From the sequence record NC_019719.1: a stretch of DNA of 41,528 nt; one strand, 5' to 3'. The notes under the pieces are model-generated. The model saw nothing but the letters and a program-made list of their open reading frames with translations. It had not been told where the DNA came from and searched no databases. Numbering within the stretch: position 1 is the first letter of the stretch; every line of letters starts with the position of its first letter. This document shows, in pieces, positions 2,060 to 41,528 of this stretch. The position numbers were made by a program, and so were the translations under genes. The DNA comes from Escherichia phage HK633.

Positions 2060-3333
2060 TGGAAGAACCTAAATACACGATTGACCTGCGAACCAATAAC
2101 GGCTGGTGGGCAAGGCTGCAGTCCTGGTTTGTCGGCGGGCGTTTAGTCACCCCAAATCAGGGCTCACAGACGGGGCCTGTTTCGGCCCACGGACACCTGG
2201 GCGATTCATCCATTAACGATGAACGGATACTGCAAATTTCGACTGTGTGGCGCTGCGTGAGCCTGATTTCAACGCTCACGGCATGCTTACCGCTTGATGT
2301 CTTCGAAACAGACCAGAATGACAACCGTAAAAAAGTGGATTTGAGCAATCCACTGGCGCGACTGCTGCGCTACTCACCGAATCAGTACATGACCGCCCAA
2401 GAATTCAGGGAGGCCATGACGATGCAGCTCTGTTTCTACGGTAACGCATATGCACTTGTGGACCGCAACAGCGCAGGTGACGTGATCAGCCTTCTCCCGC
2501 TTCAGTCTGCCAATATGGATGTGAAGCTCGTCGGAAAAAAAGTGGTTTATCGCTATCAACGCGACAGCGAATACGCCGACTTTTCGCAGAAAGAGATTTT
2601 TCATCTTAAAGGCTTCGGATTCACCGGGCTTGTAGGCCTGTCACCCATTGCTTTTGCCTGTAAATCGGCAGGTGTGGCAGTTGCGATGGAGGACCAGCAG
2701 CGAGATTTCTTTGCCAACGGCGCCAAGTCTCCGCAAATCCTCTCAACTGGCGAAAAAGTGCTAACTGAACAGCAGCGCTCCCAGGTCGAAGAGAACTTCA
2801 AAGAGATCGCCGGCGGCCCGGTAAAAAAACGCCTCTGGATTCTGGAAGCGGGTTTTTCTACATCGGCAATTGGCGTAACTCCGCAGGATGCCGAAATGAT
2901 GGCGTCCCGAAAATTTCAGGTAAGTGAACTGGCGCGATTCTTTGGCGTACCGCCTCACCTTGTCGGCGACGTCGAGAAATCAACGAGCTGGGGATCGGGC
3001 ATCGAGCAGCAGAATCTCGGCTTCCTGCAGTACACCCTGCAGCCCTATATCTCCAGGTGGGAAAACAGCATTCAGCGGTGGCTTATTCCTGCTAAGGATG
3101 TTGGCCGCATTCATGCTGAGCACAACCTCGACGGCCTGCTGAGGGGCGATTCGGCATCCCGCGCTGCCTTTATGAAGGCAATGGGAGAGGCAGGGCTACG
3201 CACCATCAACGAGATGCGACGAACGGACAACCTCCCGCCATTGCCGGGTGGCGATGTGGCAATGCGCCAGTCGCAATACGTGCCGATCACCGATTTAGGA
3301 ACCAACAAAGAGCCCCGTAATAACGGGGCTTAA
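2059..3333 (+). CDS. Portal protein (HK97 family)
   Basis: 424 aa from ATG 2059 (ORF track begins at GTG 2056); start overlaps TerL stop (TGATG); conserved position between TerL and prohead protease. Confidence 0.88.
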   Translation: MEEPKYTIDLRTNNGWWARLQSWFVGGRLVTPNQGSQTGPVSAHGHLGDSSINDERILQISTVWRCVSLISTLTACLPLDVFETDQNDNRKKVDLSNPLARLLRYSPNQYMTAQEFREAMTMQLCFYGNAYALVDRNSAGDVISLLPLQSANMDVKLVGKKVVYRYQRDSEYADFSQKEIFHLKGFGFTGLVGLSPIAFACKSAGVAVAMEDQQRDFFANGAKSPQILSTGEKVLTEQQRSQVEENFKEIAGGPVKKRLWILEAGFSTSAIGVTPQDAEMMASRKFQVSELARFFGVPPHLVGDVEKSTSWGSGIEQQNLGFLQYTLQPYISRWENSIQRWLIPAKDVGRIHAEHNLDGLLRGDSASRAAFMKAMGEAGLRTINEMRRTDNLPPLPGGDVAMRQSQYVPITDLGTNKEPRNNGA

Positions 3334-3350
3334 TTTTTATGGGGGCCGTA

Positions 3351-4028
3351 ATGCCTGAAATCGTAAAAACGCTGTCCTTCGACGAGACAGAAATCAAATT
3401 CACCGGTGACGGTAAACAGGGGATTTTTGAAGGCTACGCCTCTGTTTTTAATAACACCGATTCCGATGGCGACATCATTCTGCCCGGGGCGTTTAAAAAC
3501 GCGCTGGCGAACCAGACCCGAAAAGTGGCGATGTTTTTTAACCACAGGACGTGGGAACTGCCGGTTGGCAAATGGGACAGCCTGGCTGAGGACGAAAAAG
3601 GCCTGTATGTGCGCGGTCAACTTACCCCAGGACACAGCGGCGCCGCTGACCTGAAAGCGGCAATGCAGCACGGTACGGTTGAAGGTATGTCGGTTGGCTT
3701 TTCCGTTTCGAAAGACGATTACACCATCATTCCAACAGGCCGCATTTTTAAGAATATCCAGGCTCTGCGCGAAATCAGCGTCTGCACTTTCCCCGCCAAC
3801 GAACAGGCTGGCATCGCAGCCATGAAAAGTGTCGATGGTATTGAAACGATTCGTGATGTGGAGAACTGGCTGAGGGATTCAGTCGGCCTCACCAAATCAC
3901 AGGCAGTTGGGCTAATTGCCCGGTTTAAGTCAGCGATTCGGAGCGAGTCCGAGGGCGACGGAAACGAAGCACAAATAAACGCTCTGCTTCAGAGCATCAA
4001 ATCTTTCCCTTCTAACTTAGGTAAATAA
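3351..4028 (+). CDS. Prohead maturation protease (HK97 gp4-like)
   Basis: ATG 3351 preceded by GGGGG 5 nt upstream gives 225 aa, the size I recall for HK97 gp4; ORF track starts 12 nt earlier at 3339. Confidence 0.85.
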   Translation: MPEIVKTLSFDETEIKFTGDGKQGIFEGYASVFNNTDSDGDIILPGAFKNALANQTRKVAMFFNHRTWELPVGKWDSLAEDEKGLYVRGQLTPGHSGAADLKAAMQHGTVEGMSVGFSVSKDDYTIIPTGRIFKNIQALREISVCTFPANEQAGIAAMKSVDGIETIRDVENWLRDSVGLTKSQAVGLIARFKSAIRSESEGDGNEAQINALLQSIKSFPSNLGK

Positions 4029-6735: not shown

Positions 6736-7440
6736 ATGTCTGCACTTTATGAAAAATCGCAGCTGACGAAGATCCTTATTTCCTCCCTGCCGTCCACCAA
6801 AGAAACGATGGATTCCGCCACCTTTCTCGATCTGAGTTGCACCATCAAAGAAATTCAGTTCACTGGTGGCCAGAAGCAGGATATCGACGTAACAACACTT
6901 TGCTCTACCGAGCAGGAGAACATCAACGGCCTGCCTTCTCCGTCAGAAATCTCTCTGTCCGGCAACTTCTACAATAATCCAGCGCAGGACGCCTTGCGTG
7001 ATGCGTATGACAACGACACCACTTACGGCTTCCAGATCATCTTCCCGTCAGGTAATGGTTTTAAGTTCCTGGCCGAAGTTCGCCAGCATACCTGGTCATC
7101 TGGTACCAATGGTGTTGTGGCAGCTACATTCTCACTGCGCCTTAAAGGCAAGCCTGTCCCGATTGACTCTGTACTTAAACTGACCACTGATCTTCCTTCC
7201 TCACTGTCTGTAGCGGTGGGGGCTGCGATCAGCATGGCTGTAGTAGCTGCCGGTGGTAAGCCTCCGTATGCCTACACCTGGAAGAAGGCAGGTAGCACCG
7301 TCAGCGGGCAGACATCCGATACCTTTAATAAAGCCACCGCAGTTTCAGGTGATGCAGGTGATTACACCTGTGTGGTTACGGATTCTTCTTCTCCGGTCAA
7401 AACGGTTACCTCAGCTGCCTGCACCCTTACTATCAGTTAA
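6736..7440 (+). CDS. Major tail protein with C-terminal Ig-like domain
   Basis: GGAG RBS; 234 aa; C-terminal ~80 aa resembles Big_2/Ig-like decoration domain as in lambda gpV. Confidence 0.8.
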   Translation: MSALYEKSQLTKILISSLPSTKETMDSATFLDLSCTIKEIQFTGGQKQDIDVTTLCSTEQENINGLPSPSEISLSGNFYNNPAQDALRDAYDNDTTYGFQIIFPSGNGFKFLAEVRQHTWSSGTNGVVAATFSLRLKGKPVPIDSVLKLTTDLPSSLSVAVGAAISMAVVAAGGKPPYAYTWKKAGSTVSGQTSDTFNKATAVSGDAGDYTCVVTDSSSPVKTVTSAACTLTIS

Positions 7441-7474
7441 TGGAGATGCCGGGTTGTCCCGGCATGGATAAGCG

Positions 7475-7861
7475 ATGTCGCAAACTTTAAAACAATTAGC
7501 CATGGCGAAAATGGCTGGCTTTCGCCATAAGACGGTCGTTGTCCCTGAGTGGGAAGGTGTCAAAGTGGTTCTCCGTGAGCCGTCAGGTGAAGCCTGGCTG
7601 CGCTGGCAGGAGGTGGTGAAAGGGGGGGCCGACGATGAAAATGTGTCGGTATCGGAAAAGGCGCACCGTAATCTTTGCGCTGACGTGGTGCTCTTCATTG
7701 ACGTTCTGTGTGACACCGATAAGCAACCGGTATTCAGCGTAGACGAAGAAGAGCAGGTGCGTGAAATCTACGGGCCCGTGCACTCACGTCTGCTCAAACA
7801 GGCGCTTGACCTGATCAACAATGCGGACGAAGCGCGGGAAAAGTCTCAACCCCCGGCGTAA
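7475..7861 (+). CDS. Tail assembly chaperone (gpG-like)
   Basis: 128 aa between major tail and tape measure; the -1 frame is open from 7810 into the next ORF. Confidence 0.75.
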   Translation: MSQTLKQLAMAKMAGFRHKTVVVPEWEGVKVVLREPSGEAWLRWQEVVKGGADDENVSVSEKAHRNLCADVVLFIDVLCDTDKQPVFSVDEEEQVREIYGPVHSRLLKQALDLINNADEAREKSQPPA

Positions 7862-36996: not shown

Positions 36997-37882
36997 CATT
37001 TCTGCAATCCGGTCAGGACTTTCGAGTTAATGCGTGCTGCACGACACGTTGACACTCATACGCGAGAGCCCTGAGCCAGATTGAAGGCTATCAGGTAAGA
37101 GCATATCGACGCACTGATAGGGCTGGATTGGAAGATCATTCAGAGACCCGGCAGACAGATGTGTTCTTTCCGATGGTTTTCGTAAGCGACTTTGCGGTTT
37201 TTTAGAAACTGATCACAAAGATAAATGCAAACGAAGAAATGTATCTGGCCGTAGCTTAACCGCTAAACACCAGTGAGGTATTCCAGTTCCTCATCAACGA
37301 ATCTGGCGCACTGGCCCGGTGTGATTAATAATGGGCACACAACAGGTAAGAGCATTAAAGAACTGGCAAAGAGCTTAACGGTCTGCGAAAGCATTTCTTA
37401 GTGGCACAACTGGCCGGTACAACTGAGTGCTCTTTCCGGTGTGGTGAATGCGCAGGCTGATGCGCGCAGGAGAGCTTCGGAAGAACAAGGTGCCTGTATA
37501 CAAGCCGGAGATCAGCGCCGGCCACCACAGCCAAATCCACCCAGAGCAAAACCGTTGTTCATCCTTACCATTCCCTCAGTATTTTGGGCTACAACCCTCA
37601 GCCCATTTTTTAAAGCGTACTTCCACCAAGAACCAGACCTAACCAACTCATTGCTGACACTCTGTGGATACGGTTGTCTAGTGCGCTTTAAAAAAGAAAA
37701 CCCAGCATCAATGGCTGGGCTTCGTGATATGAGCGGCATGTATTGTTGGCGCAATCCACGCCTGATTTGCTCATGAATGCGGTCACGAACAAACCCGTTA
37801 CAAATCAACCGTAACCCGGATTTGTTCAAGCGACCATATCCATAATTCCTAATTTGAACAGATCCCCTTCTGGGGGTAAGAC

Positions 37883-38206
37883 ATGAAGATGCCAGAAAAA
37901 AATGACCTGTTAGCCGCCATTCTCGCGGCAAAGGAACAAGGCATCGGGGCAATCCTTGCGTTTGCAATGGCGTACCTTCGCGGCAGATATAATGGCGGTG
38001 CGTTTACAAAAACAGTAATCGACGCAACGATGTGCGCCATTATCGCCTGGTTCATTCGTGACCTTCTCGACTTCGCCGGACTAAGTAGCAATCTCGCTTA
38101 TATAACGAGCGTGTTTATCGGCTACATCGGTACTGACTCGATTGGTTCGCTTATCAAACGCTTCGCTGCTAAAAAAGCCGGAGTAGAAGATGGTGGAAAT
38201 CAATAA
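37883..38206 (+). CDS. S: Holin S (class I, dual-start)
   Basis: 107 aa; begins MKMPEKN (Met1-Lys2-Met3 dual start as in lambda S105/S107); three TM segments. Confidence 0.95.
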
Positions 38207-38666
38207 TCAACGCAAGGCGTTCCTCGATATGCTGGCGTGGTCAGAGGGAACTGATAACGGACGTCAGAAAACCAGAAATCATGGTTATGACGTCATTGTT
38301 GGCGGAGAGCTATTCACTGATTACTCCGATCACCCTCGCAAACTTGTCACGCTAAACCCCAAACTCAAATCAACAGCAGCCGGACGTTACCAGCTTCTTT
38401 CCCGTTGGTGGGATGCCTATCGTAAGCAGCTTGGCCTGAAAGACTTCTCTCCGAAAAGCCAGGACGCTGTGGCATTGCAGCAGATTAAAGAGCGTGGCGC
38501 TTTACCGATGATTGATCGGGGTGATATTCGTCAGGCTATTGATCGTTGCAGCAATATTTGGGCTTCATTGCCCGGTGCTGGCTACGGTCAGTATGAACAC
38601 AAGATCGATAGTCTGATTGCCAAATTCAAAGAAGCTGGCGGGGTGGTTAATGAAACTTCGCTATAA
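38190..38666 (+). CDS. R: Endolysin R (lytic transglycosylase)
   Basis: 158 aa; matches lambda R as recalled ([24 protein letters not shown]...). Confidence 0.95.
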
Positions 38667-39111
38667 GCTGGTTATTTCTGCTTTCCTCCTGACTTTATTC
38701 GGTTCTCTCGTCTGGTCAGCTAATCATTACCACAATAAAGCCATTGAATACAAAAAACAGCGCGACGAAAACGCTATGGCATTAGATTCGGCTATGGCGA
38801 CGATCTCTGATATGCAGAAGCGTCAACGTGACGTAGCAGAACTCGATGCCAGATATACAAAGGAGCTTGCTGATGCTAACGCGACTATCGAAAGTCTCCG
38901 TGCTGATGTTTCTGCTGGTCGTAAGCGCCTGCAAGTCGCCGCCACCTGTGCAAAGTCAACGACCGGAGCCAGCAGCATGGGCGATGGAGAAAGCCCAGGA
39001 CTTACAGCAGATGCTGAACTCAATTATTACCGTCTCCGAAGTGGAATCGACAAGATAACCGCGCAGGTTAACTACCTGCAGGAATACATCAGGACGCAAT
39101 GCCTGAAATAA
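38650..39111 (+). CDS. Rz: Spanin inner-membrane subunit Rz
   Basis: 153 aa from ATG 38650; N-terminal TM helix then coiled coil; overlaps R 3' end. Confidence 0.8.
   Translation: MKLRYKLVISAFLLTLFGSLVWSANHYHNKAIEYKKQRDENAMALDSAMATISDMQKRQRDVAELDARYTKELADANATIESLRADVSAGRKRLQVAATCAKSTTGASSMGDGESPGLTADAELNYYRLRSGIDKITAQVNYLQEYIRTQCLK
38873..39058 (+). CDS. Rz1: Spanin outer-membrane lipoprotein Rz1 (embedded in Rz, +1 frame)
   Basis: 61 aa from ATG 38873 with AAGGAG RBS 7 nt upstream; lipobox VVSAC then Pro-rich region. Confidence 0.65.
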   Translation: MLTRLSKVSVLMFLLVVSACKSPPPVQSQRPEPAAWAMEKAQDLQQMLNSIITVSEVESTR

Positions 39112-39142
39112 TTTTTTTGCAAATCACAAAGTCAATTTAATG

Positions 39143-39168
39143 AGCCTCGCGAAAAGCGGGGCTTTTTT
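39143..39168 (+). terminator. Intrinsic terminator after lysis genes (AGCCTCGC-GAAAA-GCGGGGCT + T6)
   Basis: 8-bp stem with one G-U pair, 5-nt loop, TTTTTT. Confidence 0.7.
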
Positions 39169-39318
39169 ATGTCCGCAGTAAACGCGCATTCTCGTGCGCA
39201 TATCAACCAAGAGCTTTTCGGGATATGAGACAGAGACAGGACGGTGGCTTACATCGTGCCGCTCTTGGGCTGTCCATGTCTGCGAGAACTGGCTCATATC
39301 ACCAAAAAGGTAAATACG

Positions 39319-39549
39319 ATGTCCAATATCATCCCGATTGATTTCGAAGGCCATCCCATGCGTTTTTCTGACGATGGCTGGTTTGACGCGACTGCGGCAG
39401 CTGACAAGTTCAACAAGGAGCCGGCTCAGTGGCTTAGGCTTCCTGAGACTGTCCGTTACATCGAGGCGTTAAAGAGTAGATATGGGAATATCACATATGT
39501 AAAAACCAGCCGCGCTCGCAAAGAAAGTGCCTGGTGGAAGCATAAATAA
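39319..39549 (+). CDS. KilA-N domain protein
   Basis: 76 aa from ATG 39319; motif GWFDATAAADKFNKEPAQWLRLPETVRYIEAL resembles the KilA-N/APSES core. Confidence 0.5.
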   Translation: MSNIIPIDFEGHPMRFSDDGWFDATAAADKFNKEPAQWLRLPETVRYIEALKSRYGNITYVKTSRARKESAWWKHK

Positions 39550-39560
39550 CTGGAGGACTT

Positions 39561-39896
39561 ATGATTTCGTATGAGGTTGAGTTTCCGACCCATAAATCGT
39601 TTAGCTTAAAAATTAATGGTTACTCTTCAACAGAGGGGCTGGATTGTAAAACGGTTGAGGCTATTGGCGGAGACGTCAACGTGCGGCTCGAAAAGAAGAC
39701 TCTGTTGATGGTCCCTTATCATGAAGACATCACGCCAGATTTCACCTTGGAAGGTTACAAGCAGCGCGCTGAAACTTACGCGAAAACTGTGATCGATCAG
39801 ATTGTTAATGCGGCTCAGCACCGAGCCGCTGACGATTTAATTCAGGAAGTTACGAACGCGGTTACTTCTTCTGAATTATTTTCTCAACTCTCTTAA
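39561..39896 (+). CDS. Hypothetical protein
   Basis: 111 aa; GGAGG RBS 4 nt upstream of ATG. Confidence 0.5.
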   Translation: MISYEVEFPTHKSFSLKINGYSSTEGLDCKTVEAIGGDVNVRLEKKTLLMVPYHEDITPDFTLEGYKQRAETYAKTVIDQIVNAAQHRAADDLIQEVTNAVTSSELFSQLS

Positions 39897-40107
39897 TCGC
39901 CTCGTGAGCATCTGGGGCCGATGAAATTTCAGGCGGTGTAACCTCCTTCAGTACATCCATCAGAACGTCCCTAACATTCTGTTTTGGTGACAGTTTGTTA
40001 ACAGCTTCAATAATCAGAGAAAAAACCAGTTTATTGGTGGCTTTTTCAATCTGTAATTCACGTTGTAAATCTGCAACTGCTTTTTCCAGTTCTGACATGG
40101 AACCCAT
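39862..40107 (-). CDS. Hypothetical helical protein on the opposite strand (convergent moron)
   Basis: 81 aa; AGGA-type RBS; 3' end overlaps 39561-39896 by 35 nt; antisense to late transcription. Confidence 0.4.
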   Translation of the reverse strand: MGSMSELEKAVADLQRELQIEKATNKLVFSLIIEAVNKLSPKQNVRDVLMDVLKEVTPPEISSAPDAHEAIKRVEKIIQKK

Positions 40108-40236
40108 GGGTATTTTCCTTTTCAGAGGTAATCAGCCATCCCTCCGCATTGAATGCGCCAGTGTCCCACCACTGACGGGCTGAATGCTTACCTTAACCAG
40201 GGTTAATGAGAAGTAACACCCTGATATTCAGACAGT

Positions 40237-40259
40237 AGCCGCCATCGTGCGGCTTTTTT
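40237..40259 (+). terminator. Intrinsic terminator (AGCCGC-CATCGT-GCGGCT + T6)
   Basis: Perfect 6-bp stem and T6 run, 16 nt before the next gene. Confidence 0.7.
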
Positions 40260-40274
40260 ATTAGAGATTCGCTG

Positions 40275-40862
40275 GTGGCTGAAGACATAAAATTTGTGGT
40301 GGTCGGCCATCACATCCGCTTAGGACATGCACAACGTCTTGCTGCGCTGCTGCATGCTCATCTGCTGGTTGATGACGATAACCACGGCGCGAACTGGAAT
40401 CATCGCCGCGCGCTTGAGTGGGCAGCAGAACAAACCTGCCGGGTAGTGGTGTTGGAAGACGACGCACTGCCAGTACATGGATTCGCCGAAAAGGTAACGT
40501 ACTGGCTGGCGCGCTTCCCTGACGACATGCTGAGCTTTTATCTCGGTACCGGCCGACCGCCGCAGTATCAGAAAGAGATTGCCGGAATGCTGGTGGAATC
40601 AGACAGAGTAAACGCTGATTACCTTGTTCTTAACAAACTGATTCACGGCGTATGTTATAGCCCTCCTCAGGGCAGGCTGGCGCGCATGCTTAACGCATGG
40701 AATAAAACGCTGGCAGCTGATTACGCCGTCGGTGAGGCATTCGGTGGCCGGGTGATTTATCCGTGTTACTCGCTGGTGGATCACGCTGACCTCCCGACGG
40801 TTGAGCGTCACCCTGACAACGAACCGAGGACGGAACGCCGCCGCGCATGGAGACTGGCATGA
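40275..40862 (+). CDS. Hypothetical alpha/beta protein translationally coupled to HNH endonuclease
   Basis: 195 aa from GTG 40275 (no in-frame ATG for about 90 codons); stop overlaps HNH ATG (ATGA); beta-alpha-beta pattern with DDD and VVVLEDD acidic motifs. Confidence 0.5.
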   Translation: MAEDIKFVVVGHHIRLGHAQRLAALLHAHLLVDDDNHGANWNHRRALEWAAEQTCRVVVLEDDALPVHGFAEKVTYWLARFPDDMLSFYLGTGRPPQYQKEIAGMLVESDRVNADYLVLNKLIHGVCYSPPQGRLARMLNAWNKTLAADYAVGEAFGGRVIYPCYSLVDHADLPTVERHPDNEPRTERRRAWRLA

Positions 40863-41200
40863 ACAAAGAGCCCCGCGTATATGGCAGCCGATGGGATAAG
40901 GCCCGTCTGCGTTTCCTGCAGCAGCACCCACTATGTGTGATGTGCGAGCAGCAGGGGCGCATAACACCAGCAACGGTGGTCGACCATATCGTGCCCCACA
41001 AACTGAAAGATGCGCTTAAGTCAGGTAACCCTCTGGCCATATCGAAAGCACAGCTCCTGTTCTGGAGTAAAGAGAACTGGCAGCCACTGTGCAAAGCGCA
41101 TCATGACTCAACGAAACAGAGAATGGAGAAGAGCGGCGCGGTAATCGGTTGTGATGCCAACGGCTACCCGCTCGATCCTGCGTCTCACTGGAGCACGTAA
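40859..41200 (+). CDS. HNH endonuclease (terminase-associated, HK97 gp74-like)
   Basis: 113 aa from ATG 40859 (GGAGA RBS); C-x2-C ... H ... H-N-H zinc-finger pattern (CVMCEQQGR...VDHIVPH...CKAHH). Confidence 0.8.
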   Translation: MNKEPRVYGSRWDKARLRFLQQHPLCVMCEQQGRITPATVVDHIVPHKLKDALKSGNPLAISKAQLLFWSKENWQPLCKAHHDSTKQRMEKSGAVIGCDANGYPLDPASHWST

Positions 41201-41403
41201 TGAAAGACCTCATCATTGAATACCGAGACGGTAAGTTTGTTCAGCTGGCGATTGATGGCGTGGAGATGAAGCGCGTAACGTCTATCCAGTTCTCCCACAC
41301 CTTAGGCGAGGACGTACCGACATTGACCGTGTCAGGACATGTGTGGTCCGAGTATGGGAAAGGCGATCACAAACTCGAACAGGTAGACAAACATTCGGCA
41401 TAG
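41200..41403 (+). CDS. Hypothetical small protein
   Basis: 67 aa; TAATG overlap with HNH stop; last ORF before the genome end. Confidence 0.45.
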   Translation: MKDLIIEYRDGKFVQLAIDGVEMKRVTSIQFSHTLGEDVPTLTVSGHVWSEYGKGDHKLEQVDKHSA

Positions 41404-41528
41404 CGCGGCGGCGGCAAGTCGATTATCTATCATGTGAAATCATTTCAAATGCAACGATATCAAATGAGAATGAATCGCATTCAGGGCAGGGGGGGGATCA
41501 AATCTTCAAAACCTTTGCCCTAAATGAC

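Follow-up and report, generated by a model that had tools for sequence, protein, structure and literature searches.

The labels "moron product" and "reverse moron product" for genes 22 and 23 of the phages HK97 and HK022 are said to go back to Juhala and colleagues in 2000 (J Mol Biol 299:27), and in phage lambda the lipoprotein gene bor, which is expressed in lysogens, lies on the opposite strand between Rz and cos. The two labels stand in the GenBank records of HK97 and HK022 (AF069529 and AF069308; gene 23 of HK022 also carries the name srb), and gp24 and gp25 of phage ES18 are labeled "possible moron". In phage phi80, a "noncontiguous operon" of taiEcA and atiEcA acts by tail assembly inhibition; taiEcA is expressed in lysogens and its expression is reduced when Q is overexpressed, and the antidote gene sits in the late operon (PMC11364771). 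Here, we analyzed the accessory segment between the lysis genes and the HNH-terminase module of Escherichia phage HK633 (NC_019719.1; the window is the whole stretch of 41,528 nucleotides (nt), to which all positions refer). It contains a forward gene of 111 amino acids (aa) at 39561–39896 on the plus strand and a reverse gene of 81 aa at 39862–40107 on the minus strand, and by comparison with the described systems it is an ordinary moron/reverse moron arrangement that has been moved to the position of lambda bor. Its most distinctive feature, which was missed in the initial annotation of this DNA, is a conserved non-coding element of about 140 nt upstream of the reverse gene (40121–40262, minus strand).

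Like its HK97 counterpart gp22, of which it is a homolog, the forward gene of HK633 faces a small, convergent, and overlapping reverse gene; as in both HK97 and HK022, the element and the same plus-strand terminator are found upstream of the reverse gene, with 77–84% identity. However, the pair of HK97 and HK022 is located between the tail genes I and J, whereas that of HK633 is located between Rz and the HNH-terminase module, and their reverse proteins are not detectably related to the 81-aa protein of HK633. The phages mEp213 and mEp043 have the same upstream element at the same position, after the Rz terminator and before the packaging region, and mEp213 gp72 is a true homolog of the 81-aa protein (same PHROG, 35% identity, E = 1e-14). 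In contrast to HK633, the forward partner in mEp213 is gp71 with only 52 aa, and the downstream gene resembles orf66 of phi80 and not the 195-aa glycosyltransferase-like gene of HK633. Gp71 (L021, 2140–2298) resembles a gp22-family member from which an internal part has been deleted, with an N-terminus MTLEER..LE as in several family members and a C-terminus ...SSVFSQL as in the cassette-encoded tail of the HK633 111-aa protein.

The likeness to lambda bor that the initial annotation had drawn holds for position and strand, with one gene facing against the late operon, and for the accessory status, whereas Bor is a secreted lipoprotein and the 81-aa protein is unrelated to it in sequence; nor is the element present in lambda, as no lambda record is among the 24 element matches. 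The likeness to phi80 is architectural: in both phages, small forward genes accompany a reverse gene that breaks into the Q-dependent late operon shortly before the packaging module. When phi80 orf62–66 were compared with the HK633 proteins by blastp and with hidden Markov models, neither blastp nor hmmsearch gave any similarity to TaiEcA (204 aa) or AtiEcA (76 aa), the blastp matches at E ≤ 1 being only weak (E ≥ 0.05) and belonging to other loci, and the element is absent from phi80. Since the architecture is common to both and the proteins and the element are not, phi80 can serve as a model for the probable regulation but not for a family assignment.

A conserved element with exchangeable cargo

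The stretch of 160 nt from the start codon of the 81-aa gene to the 195-aa gene matches other phages in which the genes alongside differ. Identity to HK633 is 92–95% in CharmingMan and SaltyDalty, 85.5–87% in ES18, Oslo, phage 29485, mEp213, and mEp043, 84% in HK022, 79% in SPN3UB, and 77% in HK97, and the element is also found in Enterobacter prophages (77–95% over the whole range), where it adjoins unrelated open reading frames (ORFs). Its sequence is more conserved than the flanking coding DNA. In all annotated cases, it lies directly upstream of a small gene that opposes the late genes, and a plus-strand terminator is annotated at its far end; the genes borne in this way are gene 23 of HK97 (between I and J), gene 23 of HK022 (srb), gene 25 of ES18 (between M and L), and gene 72 of mEp213 (after Rz). 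HK633 has the same organization, with the element directly upstream of the small opposing 81-aa ORF, and the covariance model R1 scores 120 bits at 40116–40220 on the minus strand.

A search of IMG/VR with an exact 18-mer from the core of the element recovered more than 100 contigs. All 128 instances with enough flanking sequence have an AAGGA-like Shine-Dalgarno (SD) sequence and a minus-strand ORF of 69–169 aa within about 15–25 nt, and these ORFs fall into at least 15 families, among which the HK633 type is the second most common (28 instances) and which include a DUF1883 protein and a retropepsin-like protein. The right-hand neighbor varies as well; it is the 195-aa glycosyltransferase-like gene in 36 of 85 loci, and L-like tail genes, J-like tail genes, or others are found at this place too. 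HK633 carries one copy of the element, and some phages carry two that are 2–4 kilobases apart (2256–2360 and 4308–4412 in L024, 276–382 and 4400–4507 in L055), which means that one genome can hold two reverse cassettes. Among species-representative genomes, the element is restricted to Enterobacterales, and it occurs in 225 of 5426 complete Escherichia coli genomes (about 4%), in none of which it is annotated. Rfam 15 has no match for the element, and over the region 37000–41528 it gave nothing at E ≤ 1 except two sub-threshold matches away from the element that resemble transfer-messenger RNA (tmRNA). The element sequence was not found in the literature that we searched, and searches for "reverse moron", HK022 srb, and HK633 yielded nothing functional. 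As far as our tools could show, a conserved element with exchangeable cargo is described here for the first time.

The forward gene and its partners

The 111-aa protein belongs to the family of the HK97 gp22 "moron product" (phrog_11851, E = 1e-43), as indicated both by sequence, with 28% blastp identity to HK97 gp22 over 64 aa (E = 5e-4), and by fold, since HK97 Gp22 (Q9MCR9) is the top match of its AlphaFold2 model in a Foldseek search of BFVD (probability 1.00). The model consists of a four-strand sheet followed by a long helix, with a predicted local distance difference test (pLDDT) score of 79, and gave no meaningful match in the PDB. Database searches gave 89 relatives of the 111-aa protein and 64 of the 81-aa protein, most of them in Enterobacter, Escherichia, Salmonella, Citrobacter, and Kosakonia, with median pairwise ratios of nonsynonymous to synonymous substitution rates (dN/dS) of 0.27 and 0.14, respectively. 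Because of the PHROG E-values, the relatives, and the dN/dS ratios, both ORFs are real genes rather than chance frames, and the low ratios indicate that both are under purifying selection. A profile of the gp22 family, searched against 1.84 billion representative proteins, retrieved only 19 clusters and no informative fusion, and the family is therefore narrow. The 111-aa gene begins 11 nt after the upstream ORF, which is the spacing that is also seen after a 485-aa glycosyltransferase gene in relatives, and neither a consensus scan nor inspection by eye revealed a plus-strand promoter for it. Lacking a promoter region of its own and following the upstream ORF so closely, the 111-aa gene is more likely a gene of the late operon than the lysogen-expressed cargo for which it could be taken from the initial annotation.

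A more far-reaching interpretation of the two genes is that they are a defense/counter-defense pair like taiEcA/atiEcA, in which the 81-aa protein would be an anti-phage factor of the lysogen and the 111-aa protein a late antidote that protects the phage's own lytic cycle. The architecture and the genome position match phi80, 12 of the 15 loci with a reverse gene of the 81/85-aa type also have a gp22-family gene, and HK97 likewise pairs gp22 with its own reverse gene 23. The association is loose on both sides, however. In a survey of 85 loci with enough flanking sequence, a gp22-family gene converges on a reverse ORF in 28, and these reverse ORFs belong to four unrelated families, i.e., three in addition to that of HK633; moreover, the gp22-type gene usually follows the 485-aa glycosyltransferase gene by the said 11 nt, as if that gene were its partner. 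Three of the 15 loci of the 81-aa type have no gp22 gene, mEp213 retains the 52-aa remnant, and in one E. coli prophage the 111-aa gene is cut to 92 aa next to an identical 81-aa gene. There is also no sequence or profile similarity to TaiEcA or AtiEcA, and PADLOC had no match for any protein examined, including the 485-aa glycosyltransferase and a 193-aa reverse gene product of relatives. We therefore consider a Tai/Ati-like function unlikely, and the comparative data indicate that the 111-aa and 81-aa genes are neither an obligate pair nor a functional couple.

Putative promoter box, proposed leader structure, and acting strand of the element

For a closer view of the element, 80 distinct copies were aligned in the sense of the reverse ORF. 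We read the left part of about 100 nt as the promoter and leader from which the reverse gene is expressed on the minus strand, and the right part of about 25 nt as a plus-strand terminator. In the left part, a TAnnnT box (TAAGGT at 40190–40195 in HK633), in which T72, A73, and T77 are invariant in 80 of 80 copies while their neighbors vary, may represent the −10 box, and a weak candidate for the −35 box (TTACTT at 40211–40216, TTGCTT in most copies) precedes it with a 15-nt spacer. Visual inspection of both strands for sigma-70 and sigma-54 promoters showed conservation of this minus-strand TAnnnT box only; a sigma-54-like TGGCGC-N5-ATGC of HK633 was discarded, as it is absent as a conserved feature from the other copies.

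The predicted leader contains an 8-bp GC-rich hairpin, helix C (40156–40177, minus strand; CGUCAGUG-GUGGGA-CACUGGCG), in which 99.8% of the alignment cells are paired and a U-G pair is changed to C-G in seven copies, a change that is compatible with pairing in the minus-strand RNA only. A variable linker separates it from helix S (40123–40146, minus strand), which is located directly 5′ of the SD sequence AAGGAA (40115–40120, minus strand) and 15 nt ahead of the ATG of the 81-aa gene (40107); an AAGGA-like motif is found at the SD position in nearly all 80 copies. Helix S covaries over the 80 copies, with three pairs that change on both sides and one pair that is AU in 34 copies, GU in 21, and GC in 11. 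Its loop GGCUGA (40132–40137) can pair with UCAGCC at 40178–40183, just 5′ of helix C, which would give a possible pseudoknot or an alternative long-range helix, and this pairing is so nearly invariant that the alignment neither supports nor refutes it. Read on the minus strand, nearly all departures from Watson-Crick pairing in the helices C, D, and S are G-U, which far outnumbers A-C, whereas the wobble pairs of the terminator stem, which covaries between GC (60 copies) and AU (16 copies), favor the plus strand. All five structure measures were above the means of shuffled alignments, four of them being reached by at most 1 of 500 shuffles and the measure of further pair types by 17 of 500, and 94% of the cells were paired, compared with 25–44% for slid partners.

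Several observations weigh against a minus-strand promoter and leader. The putative promoter is weak, with three of six matches per hexamer and a spacer of only 15 nt, and it escaped the consensus scan. Since the window itself supplied the sequence from which the structure was drawn, the slide control is biased; the best-conserved helices, C and the pseudoknot helix A, are nearly invariant and therefore show no covariation and are uninformative; and the plus strand folds at least as well as the minus strand (z = −2.7 versus −1.85). A covariance-model search of about 0.9 megabases of loci found two extra copies, in L024 and L055, and no new covariation, and a match in Brenneria was rejected as a chance partial match.

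The good folding of the plus strand, with three hairpins of which the last is a canonical terminator, would also agree with an element that is a plus-strand small RNA, or a small RNA derived from the 3′-untranslated region of late or moron transcripts that ends at 40237–40254, with the reverse ORFs being incidental. The covarying terminator stem with its plus-strand wobble pairs and the conservation above the level of the flanking coding DNA point in the same direction. On that strand, however, the G-U variants of the helices C, D, and S would be A-C mismatches, 128 of 128 flanked copies precede an SD sequence and a minus-strand ORF, and no Rfam family matches. Furthermore, no conserved plus-strand promoter exists upstream of the element, because the DNA there is the variable cargo. 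A small RNA thus appears to us as a rather improbable identity of the element, and the promoter and leader of the reverse gene remain our preferred reading of its left part.

GGA-containing motifs are found in the minus-strand leader at AGGGAUGG (40132–40146), in the loop GUGGGA (40164–40169), and in the SD sequence AAGGAA, at a spacing that we take to be reminiscent of leaders repressed by CsrA.

Convergent overlap and cassette exchange

The initial annotation had correctly noted the 35-nt overlap, which lies at 39862–39896 and is common to both ORFs, and had regarded the convergent overlapping pair as a typical layout for accessory cargo with exclusion, toxin-antitoxin-like, or regulatory functions. 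This second part does not agree with the comparison of related loci, in which the two genes reassort independently and the length of the overlap varies. Over the 28 loci in which a gp22-family gene converges on a reverse ORF, the overlap ranges from −37 to +47 nt, and in 11 of the 28, the arrangement that ranks second in frequency, the genes do not overlap at all. The core of the 111-aa protein (residues 1 to about 92) is conserved, whereas the C-terminal 20 residues or so, which are partly antisense to the reverse gene, are swapped wholesale among relatives, and the type of this tail matches the type of the reverse ORF one to one: the tail ...DDLIQEVTNAVxSSELFSQLS is always found with a gene of the MGSMSELEK type, and the tail ...EGEINVT always with a gene of the MSNHEIK type. 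In comparison with the Enterobacter prophage L008, only the region 39770–40123 cannot be aligned, which comprises the 3′ third of the 111-aa gene and the reverse ORF. From this gap and the one-to-one match of the tails, it follows that the exchanged unit is the tail together with the reverse ORF, bounded on the right by the element. The overlap is thus a by-product of cassette swapping, because a reverse gene always brings its own tail of the 111-aa protein along. The forward frame simply reads on to a stop in whichever cassette is present, which leaves no grounds for an antisense or toxin-antitoxin design. Convergent 3′ overlaps do occur in HK633 (35 nt), HK97 (123 nt), HK022 (81 nt), and mEp213 (65 nt), but the variable or missing overlaps, the reassortment of the partners, the full explanation of the overlap by read-through into a swapped cassette, and the absence of a match of either protein to a toxin-antitoxin or defense family in Pfam and PADLOC already largely refute a toxin-antitoxin-like or mutually antisense pair that uses the overlap as a regulatory device, and we give it very little credit.

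The product of the reverse gene

The 81-aa gene (HK633_067, WP_016063541.1) encodes a member of phrog_21164 (E = 4e-44), the PHROG that also contains mEp213 gp72, and its family is distantly linked to that of ES18 gp25 (hhalign probability 73%). The AlphaFold2 model is all-helical, with four long helices and one short helical turn (pLDDT 70); neither a signal peptide nor a lipobox was detected, and the product is predicted to be a small all-helical cytoplasmic protein. No structural match and no match in Pfam, NCBIfam, or PADLOC was obtained. The terminator scan found no canonical terminator for this gene on the minus strand. By its homology and its position behind the element, the 81-aa gene is a reverse moron of the HK97/HK022 gene-23 type and a homolog of mEp213 gp72.

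The UniRef entry of a 96%-identical Enterobacter protein (A0A0H3CJB5_ENTCC) bears the name "Anti-adapter protein IraP", and the similar lengths (81–85 aa versus 86 aa for IraP), the helical nature of both proteins, and their similar C-terminal ends (KKQPRS and KHPRQ) might seem to support an IraP-type anti-adaptor that binds RssB and stabilizes RpoS in lysogens, but genuine IraP proteins all have PF10796, of which the 81-aa protein shows no trace even at E ≤ 1, as it shows none of any NCBIfam family, blastp against E. coli IraP gave E = 0.42 over 28 residues, and the 81-aa profile gave an hhalign probability of 0.13% against a true 16-member IraP alignment, so we rejected this identity as scarcely credible. 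The IraP, Tai/Ati, and toxin-antitoxin readings all failed when put to the test.

The KilA-N reading frame is a recombination scar

The 76-aa ORF at 39319–39549 (plus strand) had been counted as a KilA-N domain gene of the cluster, and the domain match is genuine (Pfam PF04383, 35.3 bits at a cut-off of 23.8), but the ORF does not represent an independent cargo gene. As the match spans positions 4–76 of the 107 model positions, the domain is truncated, and homology stops at residue 69, at a recombination junction. Residues 1–69 are near-identical to a protein of the E. coli prophage AMSCJX03 (identical in our direct sequence comparison), in which the KilA-N protein has its full length of about 242 aa, and the phrog_1136 match of the 76-aa product covers only positions 1–70 of 244. 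Compared with the HK97 gp73-type proteins, which consist of KilA-N and a C-terminal domain (about 242 aa), the HK633 copy is thus without the whole C-terminal two-thirds.

On the DNA level, the identity of 98–99.8% with HK97, HK022, HK75, and the mEp phages extends from Rz across the terminator and inside the KilA-N gene as far as 39524, and from 39518 on the window matches the last 30 nt or so of the 485-aa gene of Enterobacter prophages, which has a weak N-terminal GT2 glycosyltransferase signature and is annotated as "glycosyltransferase" in phage CharmingMan. Direct comparison shows that both parents have the 7-nt microhomology GCAAAGA in common at the junction (39518–39524). The full-length KilA-N protein reads ...SRARKDRGGG and diverges from HK633 after ...SRARK, where HK633 reads ...SRARKESAWWKHK up to the stop; the last seven residues come from the glycosyltransferase gene, and the resulting tail ESAWWKHK compares with the C-terminus ...KENAWWKHK of the glycosyltransferase of CharmingMan (DNA ...GCCTGGTGGAAACATAA). 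The ribosome-binding site GGAGG of the 111-aa gene (39552–39556, plus strand), which the initial annotation had recognized and which lies 4 nt before the ATG at 39561, also derives from the junction between the glycosyltransferase and gp22-type genes, as the arrangement ...TAAATAAC(A/T)GGAGG(T/A)CTTATG is found in the Enterobacter prophage L008 as well. The 485-aa glycosyltransferase gene precedes the 111-aa-type gene in 13 of 14 related loci, and the inherited GGAGG and 11-nt spacing therefore indicate that HK633 has lost the gene that preceded its 111-aa gene. On this comparative evidence, the KilA-N ORF is a recombination scar. One point speaks against a mere scar, namely a match of the ORF to a small PHROG of 84-aa proteins (phrog_13826), and some residual function is possible.

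Boundaries and neighboring genes

From left to right, the region comprises a lambda-type holin, endolysin, Rz, the accessory segment, the 195-aa gene, the HNH endonuclease, and a 67-aa gene. The two terminators that had been named as bounding the segment are both present as plus-strand hairpins. The post-Rz intrinsic terminator on the left (39142–39170) has a hairpin at 39142–39164 with a 9-pair stem, including six GC pairs, followed by TTTTTAT, and a terminator is annotated at the equivalent post-Rz site in HK97, HK75, and the mEp phages. The intrinsic terminator on the right (40237–40260) is the one at the end of the element; its hairpin at 40237–40254, the stem of which covaries over the 80 copies, is followed by TTTTTTAT, and it is annotated as "terminator" in HK97 and ES18. 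In the region as a whole, 14 terminator-like sites were observed, compared with 4.1 expected from shuffles.

The proposal of accessory, moron-type DNA at this place proved right. Besides having its own plus-strand terminator, the segment has a GC content of 0.415–0.455 over 39500–40200, compared with 0.50–0.61 downstream in the region of the 195-aa and HNH genes (the contrast with the lysis genes, at 0.43–0.545, is weaker), and the region from 39525 to about 40270 is extra, unrelated DNA in comparison with HK97-type phages, in which Rz adjoins the KilA-N gene gp73; the GenBank records of HK97 and HK022, moreover, label a homologous or analogous pair as moron and reverse moron. In HK97, gp73 is followed by the HNH gene gp74.

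A minus-strand ORF of 76 aa at 39124–39354 was tried as a further gene and rejected; it has no family match in Pfam or PHROG, overlaps the post-Rz terminator and the start of the KilA-N ORF, and is unlikely to be a gene. A promoter-like site lies near it on the minus strand (39135–39108).

On the right, the 195-aa gene (40275–40862, plus strand), which overlaps the start of the HNH gene at 40847, belongs to phrog_854 ("glucosyltransferase"), has an LEDD motif, and gave no Pfam or NCBIfam match. It is the commonest right-hand neighbor of the element and travels with the HNH gene, the 67-aa gene, TerS, and TerL. As relatives carry the 485-aa GT2-like gene on the other side of the cassette, two putative glycosyltransferases flank the cassette there. 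In several Enterobacter prophages (L002, L005–L007 at 7089–7670, L012 at 2873–3454), the space between the lysis genes and the 485-aa glycosyltransferase gene is taken up by a 193-aa reverse gene that opposes the late genes; its product had no family or PADLOC match and is of about the size of TaiEcA, but without blastp similarity to it.

Seven Chi sites (GCTGGTGG), all on the plus strand, are found in the window at 2102, 12186, 14194, 15782, 40271, 40589, and 40772, compared with 1.1 expected, and three of the seven cluster in its last 1.3 kilobases. The site at 40271–40278 lies directly to the right of the cassette, 11 nt from the T-run of the terminator and 17 nt from its stem. This pattern fits the Chi-rich class of lambdoid phages (PMC12315714), and the Chi sites could favor RecBCD-driven exchange across the cassette.

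The weak tmRNA-like Rfam matches, which fall between the Q region and the holin gene (37131–37278, plus strand; E = 0.2–0.4), are far below the gathering score, and ARAGORN found no transfer RNA (tRNA) or tmRNA there. A related E. coli prophage (L141) carries tRNA-Asn and tRNA-Thr at the equivalent position, and the match in HK633 is probably due to chance or a decayed remnant.

Model and implications

Taken together, we consider it likely that the accessory segment of HK633 is a mosaic of three pieces, each with a history of its own, namely a KilA-N/glycosyltransferase scar, a gp22-family gene, and a portable reverse-moron cassette. According to this model, the first 69 codons of the KilA-N gene would have been joined to the end of the glycosyltransferase gene at the 7-nt microhomology, with deletion of the glycosyltransferase gene, and the 111-aa gene would probably be read within the Q-antiterminated late transcript. 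The reverse cassette would comprise the element, with a putative promoter, a leader up to the SD sequence, and a terminator for the opposite strand, and a small cargo ORF. Related phages would keep the element and swap the cargo by recombination between the element on the right and the neighboring forward gene on the left, and the frame of the 111-aa gene would run on into the resident cassette, producing the variable tail and the 35-nt overlap. The 81-aa gene may be transcribed from the element in lysogens and, by analogy with what has been described for lambda bor and phi80 taiEcA, may be turned down by opposing late read-through. A reverse gene at the same genome position that is expressed in lysogens and silenced by the late transcript provides a precedent (PMC11364771). 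The helical product might then bind a protein of the host or of an incoming phage, resulting in host modulation or phage exclusion.

Going beyond this, we tentatively suggest, with the balance of evidence still somewhat on the other side, that the element may be a dedicated portable expression platform for exchangeable, lysogen-expressed cargo at several late-operon positions in HK97-like and lambda-like phages of Enterobacterales. Such a platform would combine a promoter with a structured, possibly pseudoknotted leader that could be recognized by a host or phage factor, for example of the CsrA type at the GGA motifs, and late read-through transcription would act as the off-switch.

As phage DNA, the cluster itself is a routine mosaic, and its type has been recognized since the comparison of HK97 and HK022. 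It illustrates that convergent overlaps and hypervariable protein tails can arise purely by cassette exchange, and since exchange alone can yield them, some caution is advisable in reading such overlaps as regulatory designs. The element, in turn, is a sequence handle for small backward-facing genes of late operons in about 4% of the complete E. coli genomes and in many Enterobacterales prophages, and these genes constitute the class that is most likely expressed in lysogens. If they indeed have a promoter and leader in common, this would explain how accessory genes are on in lysogeny and off in lytic growth, and it would permit a cheap listing of candidate exclusion, defense, and host-modulation genes for testing. 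If the element is an expression platform, its cargo families, at least 15 in number, would represent an uncharted pool of host-modulating or anti-phage proteins of prophages that can be found via the element.

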